From a virus (taxonomy: Duplodnaviria; Caudoviricetes): a DNA stretch of 64,000 nucleotides. Shown here piece by piece: positions 43,788 through 64,000 of the stretch. Made by a program: the position numbers and the translations under genes. Where the stretch lies: IMG/VR virus record IMGVR_UViG_3300003375_000001, positions 160,001 through 224,000 of that record, one strand, 5' to 3'. A model generated the notes under the pieces. That model was not told where the DNA came from. It saw only the letters and a list, made by a program, of their open reading frames with translations, and did no database searches. Position 1 is the stretch's first letter; every line of letters starts with the position of its first letter.

Positions 43788-45326
43788 TCAGTCCAGCCAC
43801 CATTGAGTTTGAGACTTTGTTGGACGATTGTTTTGTTGATTGAACTTCGTCAGACAGAATTCAAAGTAGGCTTTTACCGACTGGGCTGGCTTCTTTCGCT
43901 TGGCAATAAGAGCTTTGAGCTTGGCTTTAGTTTCGGCTAACTTGGTTTTCAAGTTGTCCTGATCAAGCTTAGCCAATTGCCTTACCTTCAGTTCCAGAAT
44001 TTGATTAGCCTGTTCAACCGTTATCTTCAAACCTTTGGCAATCAGCTCTGCGGTGTTTGGCTTACGCAAGGCATTCATGATAGTGTCCAAATGATCACAC
44101 GCATGAATGAGAAGTTCCATATAGGCAATGTGCTTTTCTACTTCACCTATTTGGTAGTCAAGCGAATCGGCTTCAAGTTTTACTCGAAACTTGAGCCAGG
44201 TCATGGCAAGCTCAGGAACAGACAGAGCCTTGAAAGTTGTGTCCGCTTCGTTGCGACCATTGCGCACTCGAAGTTTTCTATCCGACACATAGACGTTGTA
44301 GCTGACCTTACTTCGCGTGAGAGCCTTGACCTTTTCGGCTACCGCGTTAAAGTCATTCATATTCACTGTCTTGCGAACTTGAATAACGTAGCTAAGGCCC
44401 TTACCTGAAGACACACCTTGCACCATGCTCTTCCACCATCTGGACTCTTCCAGTTGTCGCTTGGTAGGAGCTTTCTTTGACTCGGGGAGCTTTCCTTGCA
44501 CCTTTGCTATCACAGAGCCTATGTTTACTTCAGGGGCAAACTTGTTCCACGAGATAGTCTTTTTGCTGGTGTCTATGTCTAGCGGAGACTCAAACTCGAT
44601 GGTCGCATTAGGCGTGTTCATCAAGTTTAGGATGGACTCTCGATTCGATTTTGACTTTACTACCTGAGCACCCCAGGAAGTATTGAAACGTAGGCCCTTA
44701 GCAAAGTCTACAGGCGTAACCTCCTCTCTGTCTAGCATCCTACACATCAACGGCAGAAGAGACTCAGGAGTAAAGCCAGGTAAACTTGATTTGGTACCGT
44801 AACCGATACCCGTTTGAGAGTTGAATAGAATGTTTGGCAGCAGGCAGGGCAGATATACAGGCTCTTCATCCTTGTCATCATAGTTTGGCATTATTGGCGA
44901 CACCGCCAAATAGTTTGGCTGCACAAACTGCCGACCGTATATAGACAAGCGAGCAGCAGGATACCTCATGGCCGCTGCGGGGTCTACTAGGTTACCCCAG
45001 TTCCCTTGCCCTTCAAGAATAGGTACGTCGCACGTAGCGGCGACAACCATAGCTCCATATATGGAAGAATCCCCGTGGGGGTGGTACTTACCAATCACGT
45101 CACCAACGATACGGGCTGCTTTGGTATACTCTCTAGCTATCTTTGAAGAGGCCCACGTTATGCGTCTGGTGACAGGCTTTAAGCCGTCCTGCAATGCTGG
45201 GGTGGCACGTTCCTCGTTTACTTCTGTGCCATAAGCTTTCAACGATACTTTCGCGTAGTCTCCAAGTTCTACGCGGCCTACTTCAGCCCGCTTCGTTGAT
45301 TTAGCGGCTGGTGGTTTCTTTGTCAT
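43788..45326 (-). CDS. gyrA: type IIA topoisomerase subunit A (GyrA/ParC-like) lacking the C-terminal pinwheel
   Basis: QDGLKPVTRRI; ARIVGDVIGKYHPHGDSSIYGAMV; catalytic AAAMRY; only 512 aa. Confidence 0.92.
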   Translation of the reverse strand: MTKKPPAAKSTKRAEVGRVELGDYAKVSLKAYGTEVNEERATPALQDGLKPVTRRITWASSKIAREYTKAARIVGDVIGKYHPHGDSSIYGAMVVAATCDVPILEGQGNWGNLVDPAAAMRYPAARLSIYGRQFVQPNYLAVSPIMPNYDDKDEEPVYLPCLLPNILFNSQTGIGYGTKSSLPGFTPESLLPLMCRMLDREEVTPVDFAKGLRFNTSWGAQVVKSKSNRESILNLMNTPNATIEFESPLDIDTSKKTISWNKFAPEVNIGSVIAKVQGKLPESKKAPTKRQLEESRWWKSMVQGVSSGKGLSYVIQVRKTVNMNDFNAVAEKVKALTRSKVSYNVYVSDRKLRVRNGRNEADTTFKALSVPELAMTWLKFRVKLEADSLDYQIGEVEKHIAYMELLIHACDHLDTIMNALRKPNTAELIAKGLKITVEQANQILELKVRQLAKLDQDNLKTKLAETKAKLKALIAKRKKPAQSVKAYFEFCLTKFNQQNNRPTKSQTQWWLD

Positions 45327-61239: not shown

Positions 61240-61761
61240 CTAGTAAGGGTAAAGGAGGACGCCGGAAACGCCGACGGGTTCTTTCTTAGCTGTGTCAAAG
61301 GATATAAAACAGTGACCGTCGTCTACAGTACGAGGTTTTACTCTAACCACTCGGACTTCCTTAGGCGCGCTGCAAGTCAGGTCTTCGAAGCTACAAGCTA
61401 TTAAAGGATCACCTGACTTCAAGTCCTTGGCCATAACGCAGCCTTCTTGAACCCTGGTGTCTCCGTTTTTATAGCGAAGCAGGGGGAACACGGTGTGGGG
61501 TAAACAGGTCAACTTCTTACCTGTTGACAAATTGATTTGAACTACCGAAGTACCAGAGTCTTTTGACTGTGACACGCCAAACGCCTCGGTTAAGTGATAG
61601 CCTCTGTCCTTGTTCCAAGATACTACAGTAAACCTAGCGTTGGCAAAACTAGACTGACCTTCTATAACCCATGGATCGTCAATCCACTGACTGACTTCCG
61701 TTATGTCCTGTCTACCTGGCAGTCTTAACTGCAAAGTAGGATTGTATAGAACGTTAGACAC
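61240..61761 (-). CDS. stand-alone degenerate Hint (intein-like) domain protein
   Basis: VVQINLSTGKKLTCLPHTVF (block B-like), VMAKDLKSGD, VRVVRVKP and terminal GVLLYPY replacing GVLVHN; no N-terminal Cys; GTG start overlaps the gyrB-C stop by 8 nt. Confidence 0.65.
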   Translation of the reverse strand: MSNVLYNPTLQLRLPGRQDITEVSQWIDDPWVIEGQSSFANARFTVVSWNKDRGYHLTEAFGVSQSKDSGTSVVQINLSTGKKLTCLPHTVFPLLRYKNGDTRVQEGCVMAKDLKSGDPLIACSFEDLTCSAPKEVRVVRVKPRTVDDGHCFISFDTAKKEPVGVSGVLLYPY

Positions 61762-62476
61762 CTAGCAACTCCTTACGTGTAGACACGTCGTCCGACATGA
61801 GCAAGGTGAAGTACGTGTTCTTTTCAGCCATCTCCGTAGTCACTTGTTTAAGCCTACGTGTGGCAGGGTTAAAGACAGCGTACTCGATCAGCTCACTAGG
61901 AACTTCACCCCAGCCTTTGATATGCTGAATATGTAAGTTAGCGGGTGCACCCAATCCCTCTAACGTGGTTCGAAGATCGTTAGCTGATGGGCCGAACACG
62001 TATTCACCCTTGTAGATGGAATAGTACTCAGGAACGTCTACAAGGTGAATATAGCCGGCCTTGAACAAGCCGGGCATATACTTGTAGAACAAGGCCAACT
62101 CGAGGTTGTTGATGTGGCCACCGTCGGGATCGGGGTCACTCAACACACAGATAAAGTGTGTGCGCAAGTTCCCGATAGGGTTCTCAAGGTTCTTGGCGTC
62201 AAAGCCTATCATGGCCAAGATGTAGACGATCTCTGCGCTAAGAAGTACTTTCTCGGGAGACTCCCGAAACGCATTCATGATTTTTCCCTTGAGAGGAAGG
62301 ATCTCTTGATACCTGGAGTCACGAGCCTCGCGGCAGTTGTGAACTACTACGCCGTTGGCGATAAAGTTTTGGTTTTCATACCTATGTCCTCGGGTAGTTT
62401 GATTCGTCACGTCGTATACAGGTATAGGCTTGTCAAGCTTAATTCGCTTGACAGACGTGACTGTCCTCATTTTCAT
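61754..62476 (-). CDS. gyrB: split-intein C half (47 aa) fused to the C-terminal TOPRIM half of GyrB/ParE
   Basis: Start ATG 62476 (MKMRTVTSVK); Int-C blocks VYDVT...QNFIANGVVVHN|C; extein CREARD...QEILPLKGKIMN, SDPDPDGGHI, HIKGWGE, LLMSDDV..RK. Confidence 0.92.
   Translation of the reverse strand: MKMRTVTSVKRIKLDKPIPVYDVTNQTTRGHRYENQNFIANGVVVHNCREARDSRYQEILPLKGKIMNAFRESPEKVLLSAEIVYILAMIGFDAKNLENPIGNLRTHFICVLSDPDPDGGHINNLELALFYKYMPGLFKAGYIHLVDVPEYYSIYKGEYVFGPSANDLRTTLEGLGAPANLHIQHIKGWGEVPSELIEYAVFNPATRRLKQVTTEMAEKNTYFTLLMSDDVSTRKELLGV
62336..62476 (-). mobile_element. split intein, C-terminal fragment (Int-C)
   Basis: Blocks F and G only, ending HN with Cys+1 at 62335-62333. Confidence 0.9.
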
Positions 62477-62513
62477 AGAGGGTGATTCATCTGTCAATTG
62501 AAAGGAAGTTATC

Positions 62514-63758
62514 ATGAAAGATACCGTAGCTGAAAGATTGTTTAAAAACGGGGTAATAGCCCGAGGCCAGTGCCCCATAGAGGAAAAGGTCGTTACACAC
62601 CTACTTAAATTAACAGGTCGTGAACTCAAACAGGCTTGCTGGCTAAAGTTACCTAAACAAGCCTTGGACTTACTATTAGCTGCTACCATAGATGCACAAA
62701 CATCCTTAGGCCTGTCTAGACCGTCTACGTCACACAAAGGTATTTTAGAGGACGCGTTTGTAGCTTACCTATTAAACGACAAGATGAAGTTTAAATGCCC
62801 AGGGTGCAACCAGTTTACGTTACCTATAGCAGAGAAAGGTACAGGCCGGTATCGTAATTCTTTTTGCACCATAGCGTGTATGAACGCGTGTGAAGAGGTA
62901 GTGAGGAGAAGGAGAGGGACATGCAAGGCACGCTATGGGTATGAAGAAGCAAACCACAACCCAGAAATAGCTGAAAGACGAAACGCAAACGTGAGAAGGG
63001 TCCAGAAGGAAAAATACGAAGATATTCAAAGGTCAAAACGAAAAACGGCGTTAAGTAACTGGGGTGTAGAACATCACATGCACCATTCTGTATTTAGAGC
63101 AGAAACTAGCCGACGAAACGTAGCTTTGAACACTTCAGCGTTAGGTAGAGCCGCGTACAAAAAGCGAAGTGGTTTTGACAACCCTATGCATGACCCAGCT
63201 ACCCTAAAGAAAATGTTGGACACAAAAATAGCTAGGTATGGCACAACGTCTTCATCACCTCACATGAAAGGCAACAAAGGTAGGAACAACTTTAGTTCTA
63301 CAGAAATGCAACAGGCGATAAGAACGTCTGACGGGAAATTGAAAGGACGGGTGATGAAACAGCAGCTTACGGTTAAGGTAAGCTTTAGAGGGAAAGGGCT
63401 ACTGGTAGGCTCAGGATTAGAAGCCTCATTTGTTAAACGCCTAGAAGAAAACAAAAACATCAAGGCTGTAGTTCAAGGAGATAAACTCCCTACTATAAGT
63501 GTCGGCACTAAACGTTATTTTCCTGATCTAGGGTTAATAAGCACCTCAGGAAAGAAAGCTTTAGTAGAGGTTAAGTCTCCTTTCACTTTCAAAGCAGAAG
63601 GAAGCAAGGTTATAGCTTGTGCCCTAGCTGCCGTTAAGGTAGCAAAGAAACACCAGGCTGTTTACGTCATGGCTGTGTGTGAAGGGAAGAATGAGTGGAA
63701 GACAATGGTCAACCCTACCAAAGCACAGTTAGTAAACTACTTAGTATCCATTATGTGA
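62514..63758 (+). CDS. free-standing PD-(D/E)xK putative homing endonuclease, antisense within the fractured gyrB
   Basis: SD AAGGAAG; CPGC..FCTIAC zinc motif; K.RYG...HP/NP repeats (DUF7487-like); catalytic YFPDL...LVEVKS. Confidence 0.82.
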   Translation: MKDTVAERLFKNGVIARGQCPIEEKVVTHLLKLTGRELKQACWLKLPKQALDLLLAATIDAQTSLGLSRPSTSHKGILEDAFVAYLLNDKMKFKCPGCNQFTLPIAEKGTGRYRNSFCTIACMNACEEVVRRRRGTCKARYGYEEANHNPEIAERRNANVRRVQKEKYEDIQRSKRKTALSNWGVEHHMHHSVFRAETSRRNVALNTSALGRAAYKKRSGFDNPMHDPATLKKMLDTKIARYGTTSSSPHMKGNKGRNNFSSTEMQQAIRTSDGKLKGRVMKQQLTVKVSFRGKGLLVGSGLEASFVKRLEENKNIKAVVQGDKLPTISVGTKRYFPDLGLISTSGKKALVEVKSPFTFKAEGSKVIACALAAVKVAKKHQAVYVMAVCEGKNEWKTMVNPTKAQLVNYLVSIM

Positions 63759-64000
63759 GACTACTTTCTTACCGTCTAAGTCTTCAGCCTTAGTATACAA
63801 ACCGTCATCCGTTAAGAACAAATGGTCGGGAGTACACGTTATAACCGTTCCGTCGTCTAACTCGACCTCTACTAGATCGCACGTCTCTTTTGTAATTATG
63901 GGTACAGAGAAAGTTCCCGTCATTATCTTGTTGGTATCAAAGTCTAAGAAAGGTCCTTGCCATTCCAACGCGTTCTCATGCAAGTAAGATAAAGACTGAG
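63741..64000 (-). CDS. 3' end of the GyrB-N::Int-N gene (split intein N half; 5' part lies beyond the window)
   Basis: Frame is open to the window edge (QSLSYLHEN...); intein block B VEVELDDGTVITCTPDHLFLT, KAEDL, then TAA at 63743-63741. Assignment to gyrB is inferred from the downstream Int-C. Confidence 0.82.
   Translation of the reverse strand, partial: QSLSYLHENALEWQGPFLDFDTNKIMTGTFSVPIITKETCDLVEVELDDGTVITCTPDHLFLTDDGLYTKAEDLDGKKVVSHNGY

Follow-up and report, generated by a model that had tools for sequence, protein, structure and literature searches.

A fractured phage gyrB gene with a probable split intein and an antisense nuclease gene between its halves

How might a phage make the B subunit of a type IIA topoisomerase when the gene for it lies in two pieces, with another gene facing the opposite way in the gap? 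The question is raised by a 64,000-nucleotide stretch of DNA (the window) that spans bases 160001-224000 of IMG/VR record IMGVR_UViG_3300003375_000001, a virus sequence of 238,517 bp from a freshwater metagenome, with direct terminal repeats. At its right-hand end, a gyrB-like gene on the minus strand stops within the amino-terminal part of an intein (Int-N); further along the same strand, a second gene begins with the carboxyl-terminal part (Int-C) and continues into the remainder of GyrB; and a putative endonuclease gene lies between the two on the plus strand. Very probably the GyrB-like subunit is encoded by a fractured gene, with a split intein and an antisense nuclease gene between its halves, and is joined at the protein level. 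An earlier note on this DNA had drawn attention to the layout, and its coordinates (frame stop 63741, Int-C ATG 62476, end 61754, overlap of 18 nucleotides (nt), spacer of 37 nt) were all reproduced from the list of open reading frames (ORFs) and the raw sequence. In window positions, the elements are:

61754-62335, minus strand: C-extein of 193 residues, comprising Cys+1, the remainder of TOPRIM (DPDPDG), and the C-terminal domain of GyrB (Pfam DNA_gyraseB_C, 7.9e-10, and Toprim; GyrB in PDB, 1.7e-23)
62336-62476, minus strand: Int-C, 47 residues, blocks F and G, PVYDVT...GVVVHN; ATG at 62476, with further in-frame ATGs at 62470 and 62515
62477-62513: divergent 37-nt spacer between the nuclease ATG and the Int-C ATG, holding the conserved motif ATCACCCTC
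62514-63758, plus strand: free-standing putative homing endonuclease gene, 414 residues (Pfam DUF7487, 1.8e-10; weak RE_endonuc), with the Shine-Dalgarno sequence AAGGAAG 6 nt before its ATG
63741-63758: 18-nt overlap where Int-N and the nuclease gene converge, taking in the final codons of each
63741-64000, minus strand: 3' end of the gyrB-N gene, encoding most of Int-N; open to the window edge, stop codon at 63741-63743

Does the frame that leaves the window belong to GyrB? The GyrB ATPase domain, an EGDSA motif, and intein block A with its Cys1 had been predicted beyond base 64000, and all are found there, the motif as EGESA, in a 1033-residue upstream ORF that reaches the window-equivalent position 66842 (L002 4742-7843). 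(Here own, L002, L019, and G000 denote this phage's genome or pieces of it; other L and P labels denote relatives.) The whole gyrB-N gene encodes, in order, the GyrB ATPase domain, a 491-residue HNH intein, the transducer domain, and Int-N. Int-N occupies residues 935-1033 (99 residues), of which the first 13, including Cys1, lie just past base 64000; within the window, the minus-strand frame ending at 63741 carries TCTPDHLFLTDDGLYTKAEDL (TCTPDH...KAEDL). With a slash marking the intein position, the N-extein ends and Int-N begins as ELFILEGESAAGG/CFIGST, in longer form ERELFILEGESAAGG/CFIGSTIV, giving the motif EGESAAGG/C.

On the other side of the break, GVVVHN is followed by CREARDSRYQEILPLKGKI, with Cys+1, and then by the rest of the GyrB C-terminal half down to 61754. 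The break had been assigned to the EGDSAGG region of TOPRIM, which holds; its exact position needed correction, for the +1 Cys occupies the Ser position of EG(D/E)SAGG/S and does not lie one residue later. The two gyrB halves keep their original order and orientation at one locus, and joined they hold the GHKL ATPase, transducer, and TOPRIM (EGESA, DPDPDG) domains and the C-terminal tail of a type IIA topoisomerase B subunit. PHROG 543 (topoisomerase II large subunit) matches the N gene over profile positions 153-450 and the C gene over 451-636; the positions run on across the break, and the host protein therefore neither lacks nor repeats any part there.

Are the two flanking segments parts of one working intein? 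Sequence comparison supports assignment to the class 1, canonical, naturally split inteins, at the TOPRIM EGDSAGG site. Int-N ends at its own stop codon, Int-C begins at its own ATG, and the break falls between blocks B and F; the two align end to end with residues 1-97 and 123-169 of the contiguous 169-residue intein of P0169. Pfam Intein_splicing matches both pieces weakly. Cys1, T1004, and H1007 (the TxxH motif, here TPDH) are invariant in an alignment of eight N-part genes. The Int-C/GyrB-C protein has homologues of equal length, of which one is 79% identical and roughly a dozen are 40-45% identical. Aligned, they retain P17, V20, VVHN, and Cys, Ser, or Thr at +1, with V45, H46, and N47 nearly invariant. 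The full set of splicing residues (Cys1, TxxH, HN, and C/S/T at +1) is retained in eight loci at 25-79% identity.

The halves also carry opposite charges, the pattern described for natural split inteins by Dassa et al. 2009 (PMC2677866). Net charge here is -11 for Int-N and +5 for Int-C; across the loci, stand-alone Int-N ranges from -8 to -13 (n=7) and Int-C from 0 to +5 (n=8). The Int-N of L010, which is fused to an HNH domain, has a net charge of +14. A two-chain complex of Int-N with Int-C plus three extein residues was modelled in three runs. The predicted complex scored an ipSAE of 0.90 (runs 0.90, 0.90, and 0.91; best control 0.00), with at least 98% of contacts agreeing between runs and a partner pLDDT of at least 86; among solved complexes, 51 of 78 reach this mark, and among mismatched pairs 2 of 108 do. 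Split-intein complexes have already been solved, so this score measures likeness and is not proof of binding.

Protein trans-splicing of the GyrB halves is thus best described, on sequence grounds, as very likely. The acidic Int-N and basic Int-C would associate and fold into one HINT domain; class-1 trans-splicing would then run through an acyl shift at Cys1, transesterification to Cys+1, and cyclisation of Asn47. The product would be a contiguous subunit of about 636 residues, whose metal-binding TOPRIM strand would be intact only after ligation. Since the nuclease gene is antisense and closes the intein frame, the intein would be obligatorily split. The ligated subunit would pair with a GyrA-like subunit encoded 16 kb away:

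43881-45209, minus strand: GyrA-like (DNA_topoisoIV) partner subunit, PF00521, 212 bits; a 529-residue open frame, without stops and uninterrupted

What is the gene in the gap? The earlier note had called its product a 414-residue, plus-strand PD-(D/E)xK endonuclease, seated in reverse at the intein's own endonuclease insertion point. Both parts are borne out: the gene lies between blocks B and F, the catalytic residues are invariant in 34 full-length family members (the set over which invariance in the nuclease was counted), and the predicted fold is TnsA-like. Three segments can be told apart:

62796-62879, plus strand: zinc (Zn) ribbon (C95, C98, C118, C122); the four Cys invariant in the 34 members; short strands in the AF2 model
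62892-63248, plus strand: DUF7487 helical repeats, presumably the DNA-binding module; Pfam DUF7487 in 34 of 34 members; AF2 helix pairs with pLDDT above 90
63360-63755, plus strand: TnsA-like PD-(D/E)xK catalytic domain (E303, D338, E352, K354); residues invariant in the 34 members, Tn7_TnsA-like_N (PF08722) in 29 of them

The active site is thus a canonical E...PD...ExK. The AF2 model (mean pLDDT 88) begins with a helical region, followed by short strands around the Cys cluster and a run of helix pairs; residues 249-282 form a disordered linker to a C-terminal alpha/beta domain. Searched whole with Foldseek, its top matches are all PD-(D/E)xK nucleases, with weak E-values (6e-3 at best). An exhaustive structural aligner places TnsA (1t0f_A) first, with Z 10.1 and a root-mean-square deviation of 2.5 Å over 106 residues; the next matches, tRNA-splicing endonucleases and Hjc, lie two Z units below, and Vsr (1cw0), I-Ssp6803I (2ost), and I-Bth0305I (3r3p) score 6.0, 5.5, and 5.4. 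The repeat region is matched by PHROG 3339, annotated "homing endonuclease". When six orthologues are combined into a profile, it retrieves 22,512 cluster representatives at E <= 1e-3 (1,757 at E <= 1e-30); most members of the family lie outside inteins.

The same genome encodes a second nuclease of this family outside the window, at G000 ~87,644-88,888 on the minus strand (L019:778-2022). It too has 414 residues and the Zn-ribbon/DUF7487/PD-(D/E)xK order; its free-standing gene runs in the opposite direction to both neighbours and shares 29 nt with the start of a helicase-like gene.

Is the arrangement peculiar to one phage? The earlier note's account of the architecture was right, but the locus has company: fractured gyrB genes form a widespread family in phages. 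All relatives of the locus came from large protein collections: GenBank phages queried with the locus and the nuclease, at the nucleotide level and by tblastn, gave no match, nor did single-sequence pattern scans of IMG/VR, and the layout was not found in cultured phages. (The jumbo phages PaBG and BcepSaruman match the C half but have contiguous genes; the gyrB-like gene of PaBG encodes 671 residues and is probably intein-less, that of BcepSaruman 859.) Contiguous and intein-less alleles had been proposed as something to look for in related phages, and both turned up. The allele states at the site are:

Int-N gene, antisense DUF7487-TnsA-like gene, Int-C gene (7 lineages): own, L003 (also L004, L005), L006, L008, L013, L028, and the P0014 contig
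Split intein without a nuclease gene: L011 (246-nt gap), L012 (306-nt gap), and the P0176 contig (53-nt gap)
Int-N fused in frame to an HNH domain, a stop, then a separate Int-C gene: L010
Contiguous mini-inteins of 141-169 residues at the same site: P0169, P0171, P0172, P0178, and P0187
Contiguous 292-residue intein at the same site: P0177
Intein-less: P0184 (EGESAAGL/CRTAR) and P0181

The three-gene loci come from independent assemblies (ENA, Logan, and JGI samples), and recurrence of the layout among them is far beyond chance. In all seven lineages that have it, the nuclease gene is on the opposite strand, and its 3' end overlaps the 3' end of Int-N by 9-83 nt. A close relative, L003, has a 37-nt spacer of equal length and near-identical sequence. 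Between own and L003, synonymous sites are saturated (synonymous divergence, pS, 0.74-0.79). The nuclease is nevertheless 62% identical over 414 residues without insertions or deletions (nonsynonymous divergence, pN, 0.27; pS 0.74), and the GyrB pieces are 75-79% identical; the host gene changes at about half the pace of the nuclease. On this comparison of sequences, the nuclease gene is clearly maintained. Elsewhere it has been eroded: the 306-nt gap of L012 (L012:3501-3806) holds a decayed antisense remnant of the first ~90 nuclease residues, with an in-frame stop and a frameshift, which is 61% identical to the L006 nuclease over 75 residues (E 6e-30).

Two relatives show further variations. 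In L010 (L010:2114-5896), the Int-N-HNH fusion is on the sense strand at the same gyrB site, and the Int-C gene follows 104 nt later. In the P0014 contig (ENA ERZ1426851, 201.8 kb), GyrB is in three pieces: a 540-residue N part, the antisense 453-residue DUF7487 gene, a 174-residue protein in which a 21-residue extein separates Int-C from a second Int-N, and finally a 208-residue C part. The gyrA-like gene of P0014 is also broken, into pieces of 174, 363, and 484 residues, the last with an Intein_splicing match.

Can a fracture be undone? The contiguous intein closest to the present halves is that of P0169, in L015, with 51% identity to Int-N (49/97) and 53% to Int-C (25/47), and L015 aligns with own and L003 with a single 1198-nt gap. 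Within L015:3099-3250, the linker of its 169-residue intein, features of the antisense nuclease gene remain: the ribosome-binding site, the ATG, about seven N-terminal codons (M-R-D-T-I-G-E, compared with M-K-D-T-V-A-E), and the last eight or so codons with the stop. Where fractured alleles have the Int-N stop TAA, L015 has CAA. The offset between the Int-N and Int-C frames here is 1267 nt and the L015 gap is 1198 nt; both are 1 mod 3, so the deletion brings the halves into one frame, joined by a linker of 23 codons. Both the start and the end of the nuclease gene would hardly be expected at an empty target site, and L015 is therefore read as a deletion derivative rather than an ancestor. It appears to be a fracture healed by the 1198-nt deletion, although the similarity is short.

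Together, the loci suggest a life cycle: empty site, contiguous mini-intein, fractured intein with nuclease gene, nuclease gene decaying or lost, and probably re-fused intein. We infer that the antisense gene encodes a homing endonuclease that would spread or maintain the element by cutting gyrB alleles without it; this reading draws on its position in the intein, on the polymorphism of presence, absence, and decay, and on the PHROG annotation. Active homing by the nuclease is plausible and, judged from sequence, somewhat favoured.

What other explanations might the locus have? T4 topoisomerase II is split without an intein. By analogy with T4 gp39/gp60 and with NrdA of Aeromonas phage Aeh1, whose halves are joined through remnants of a mobile element, the GyrB pieces might act as a non-covalent complex in which the intein halves are docking modules and no peptide bond is formed. 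PHROG 7229 (172 positions), which from its length we take to be the gp60 family, matches residues 101-238 of the C half and lends this proposal some support, as does the published case of a fragmented ribonucleotide reductase that assembles without splicing (PMC3045599). Docking alone, however, would not need the catalytic splicing residues, which are kept in eight loci down to 25% identity. Moreover, the break is not in a linker but within the EGDSAGG/S strand of TOPRIM, next to the catalytic Glu, and the T4 break, provided that PHROG 7229 does represent gp60, is about 50 residues further on. A purely non-covalent subunit is accordingly improbable. Still less credible is a 1.26-kb insert that behaves as an intron with an antisense ORF and is removed at the RNA level. 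Group I introns carrying endonuclease genes do occur in phage genes, but a search of both strands over 5.8 kb gave no Rfam match, to an intron or to any other RNA, at E <= 1, the Int-N stop and Int-C start are conserved in eight loci, and the boundaries follow intein blocks rather than intron-like ends. It is just as hard to credit a decaying pseudogene or an assembly artefact in a phage that uses its host's gyrase. The genome is a single one derived from a metagenome, and its sequence is present in one DNA run only, possibly its own source; against this, the same layout occurs in the independent assemblies, the three ORFs are intact despite saturated synonymous divergence, and the GyrA-like partner is intact.

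Doubt attaches more readily to the role of the nuclease than to the splicing of its host. The enzyme might no longer home, or might never have done so, having been domesticated or serving another role (in recombination, say, or in keeping out related phages); the split intein would then remain because its loss is impossible. Several features would fit: divergence of the nuclease roughly tracks that of the host gene; the family is very large, with members mostly not in inteins; the second copy in this genome is free-standing between unrelated genes; and split inteins persist without a nuclease in L011, L012, and the P0176 contig. The classic insertion point, loss or decay in some lineages, and replacement by HNH in L010 instead fit a homing cycle, as does the putative annotation of PHROG 3339 members as homing endonucleases. 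A nuclease without a homing role is on balance unlikely, less so than the other alternatives.

Some observations weigh against trans-splicing and homing as proposed here. The phage is uncultured and its sequence is in no RNA run; expression, splicing, and cleavage are inferred. Familiarity of the predictor with solved split inteins may account for part of the complex score. Identities among the loci are 24-28% for the nuclease and 25-33% for the host gene, a co-divergence as compatible with vertical inheritance of an element that is no longer mobile as with active homing. Int-C has no Shine-Dalgarno sequence here, a caveat that the earlier note had raised, nor does it in L003. The sole sigma-70-like match, a strong -35/-10 pair on the gyrB strand (window 62497-62469), was considered as an Int-C promoter and rejected, because transcription would start downstream of both Int-C ATGs.

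How, then, might Int-C be expressed? Shine-Dalgarno sequences do precede the Int-C genes of L006, L008, L011, L012, and L013. In this genome, however, a Shine-Dalgarno match of at least 4 nt precedes only some 40% of crude long ORFs (11% in random sequence), so its absence before Int-C is not decisive. The in-frame ATGs at 62470 and 62515 are conserved alternative Int-C starts, and the latter overlaps the nuclease ATG in a TCATGA palindrome. A scan for promoters and terminators found no more sites than in shuffled sequence. The 37-nt spacer is too short for two divergent promoters; gyrB-C would therefore be read through from gyrB-N across the antisense gene, or from a start inside that gene, and the nuclease transcript must start inside Int-C or gyrB-C. 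The sequence ATCACC(C/T)TC, at window 62480-62488 on the minus strand, resembles the 3' tail of 16S rRNA (the anti-Shine-Dalgarno sequence) and is kept upstream of Int-C in L003, L008, and L011.

A more speculative proposal has two parts, taken jointly: that the backwards orientation is selected, gyrB read-through providing antisense RNA to the nuclease and so coupling nuclease dose and topoisomerase output reciprocally; and that split and contiguous inteins interconvert. The two together are possible, though doubtful.

Are there precedents for such a locus? T4 genes 39 and 60, for topoisomerase II, are reportedly separated by a mobA cassette. There, as here, a mobile endonuclease cassette divides the gene for a GyrB-like phage subunit in two; in contrast, T4 has no intein, and its subunits stay separate, with the break downstream by the distance given above under the same assumption about gp60.

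The nearest parallel is with the fractured genes from 26 loci described by Dassa, London, Stoddard, Schueler-Furman & Pietrokovski (2009, PMC2677866), the source of the gp41-1, gp41-8, NrdJ-1, IMPDH-1, and NrdA-2 split inteins. The likenesses are many: a phage enzyme of DNA metabolism; a canonical split intein (about 100 plus 35-50 residues) between blocks B and F; a free-standing nuclease gene in between; opposite charges; and the existence of loci without the endonuclease. In the 2009 set, however, the three ORFs are on one strand throughout, the nucleases are GIY-YIG or Vsr-like (EDxHD, of PD-(D/E)xK fold), and the hosts are gp41, IMPDH, DnaE, NrdA, NrdJ, ligase, and terminase, with no topoisomerase among them. 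Here the nuclease gene is antisense in all seven loci and overlaps the 3' end of Int-N, its product is of the Zn-ribbon/DUF7487/TnsA-like kind with the canonical E-D-ExK, and the host is GyrB.

Antisense endonuclease ORFs are themselves on record in contiguous inteins, those of Synechocystis DnaX and Chloroflexus SpoVR-like protein (Gorbalenya 1998; Gogarten 2002, both as cited in bioRxiv 10.1101/2025.01.02.630785); the same 2025 preprint describes actinobacteriophage inteins with antisense LAGLIDADG or VSR-like ORFs. These share with the present locus an endonuclease gene on the opposite strand at the endonuclease insertion point. They differ in being contiguous, with a frame that stays open through the antisense gene and splicing in cis, whereas here the frame is closed, the second half is in another phase (1267 nt), two proteins are made, and the nuclease is of another family.

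Contiguous GyrB inteins at the EGDSAGG site, before S, T, or C, are common in cellular genomes, bacterial and archaeal ("intein-containing DNA gyrase subunit B" of Nanoarchaeota, Chloroflexia, and the candidate phyla radiation, CPR), and also occur in phages. They occupy the same site and belong to a related lineage; extein plus Int-N here is about 30% identical to the cellular examples and 40-53% to the phage mini-inteins P0169, P0171, and P0178. In contrast to the present case they are single polypeptides, either mini-inteins or inteins with nested LAGLIDADG or HNH domains. The nuclease, finally, shares the restriction-endonuclease-like fold with TnsA of Tn7 (1t0f), I-Ssp6803I, and I-Bth0305I. 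It lacks the C-terminal domain and the transposon context of TnsA, and its N-terminal Zn-ribbon and DUF7487 repeats are absent from all three.

A literature search, outside of which most subscription journals lay, found no naturally split GyrB or topoisomerase intein, no paper on DUF7487, and no antisense nuclease between split-intein halves; nor did the searchable literature contain an assay of any DUF7487/TnsA-like family member. The suggestion that such a locus had not been described therefore survives for the combination. It would not extend to the components, for antisense endonuclease genes in contiguous inteins and PD-(D/E)xK-fold (Vsr-like) nucleases in fractured genes are already published, and the novelty lies in a new combination, not in a new principle. 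On that search, what is new is the host enzyme, the nuclease family as far as inteins are concerned, and the consistently antisense, frame-closing arrangement.

Two neighbouring features are also of interest. The contiguous 491-residue HNH intein in gyrB-N lies in the ATP-lid motif (YEVSRG/C...VLVSN/SHGIG, residues 128-618), just outside the window at L002:5990-7462 on the minus strand (G000 224989-226461). Its penultimate residue is Ser, not His; a copy about 50% identical occupies the same site in L010, and none is present in the close relative L003. Downstream, a 173-residue ORF at window 61240-61761 on the minus strand overlaps the gyrB-C stop. A possible "dead Hint", it has intein-like motifs (TCLPHTVF and GVLLYPY) without catalytic residues, is kept in L003 (54%) and weakly in L010, and has no Pfam or PHROG match; its language-model (Atlas) neighbours include Hint families at only 0.87-0.90, and its AF2 model, with a pLDDT of 48, was too poor for a structure search. 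An ORF of similar size, 183 residues, follows the intein-less gyrB of L016; at 18% identity, it is a possible homologue.

If the splicing reading is true, a type IIA topoisomerase joins the enzymes made by natural protein trans-splicing, and does so at the catalytic TOPRIM strand; intein chemistry would thus gate an essential replication enzyme of a jumbo phage. The architecture brings together two published oddities, fractured genes and antisense intein endonucleases. It also gives the DUF7487/TnsA-like family, which numbers over 22,000 sequence clusters, a specific predicted target, so that its members become testable as homing endonucleases. The dozen or so diverged Int-N/Int-C pairs, with Cys, Ser, or Thr at +1, are candidate orthogonal tools for protein ligation. 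Were the orientation indeed selected, transcription of the nuclease gene would start within Int-C and collide with that of gyrB-N. The related loci, meanwhile, provide a natural series for how split inteins arise, persist, and perhaps revert; and if split and contiguous forms do interconvert, fracture would be a reversible stage in the life cycle of intein and endonuclease, not a dead end.

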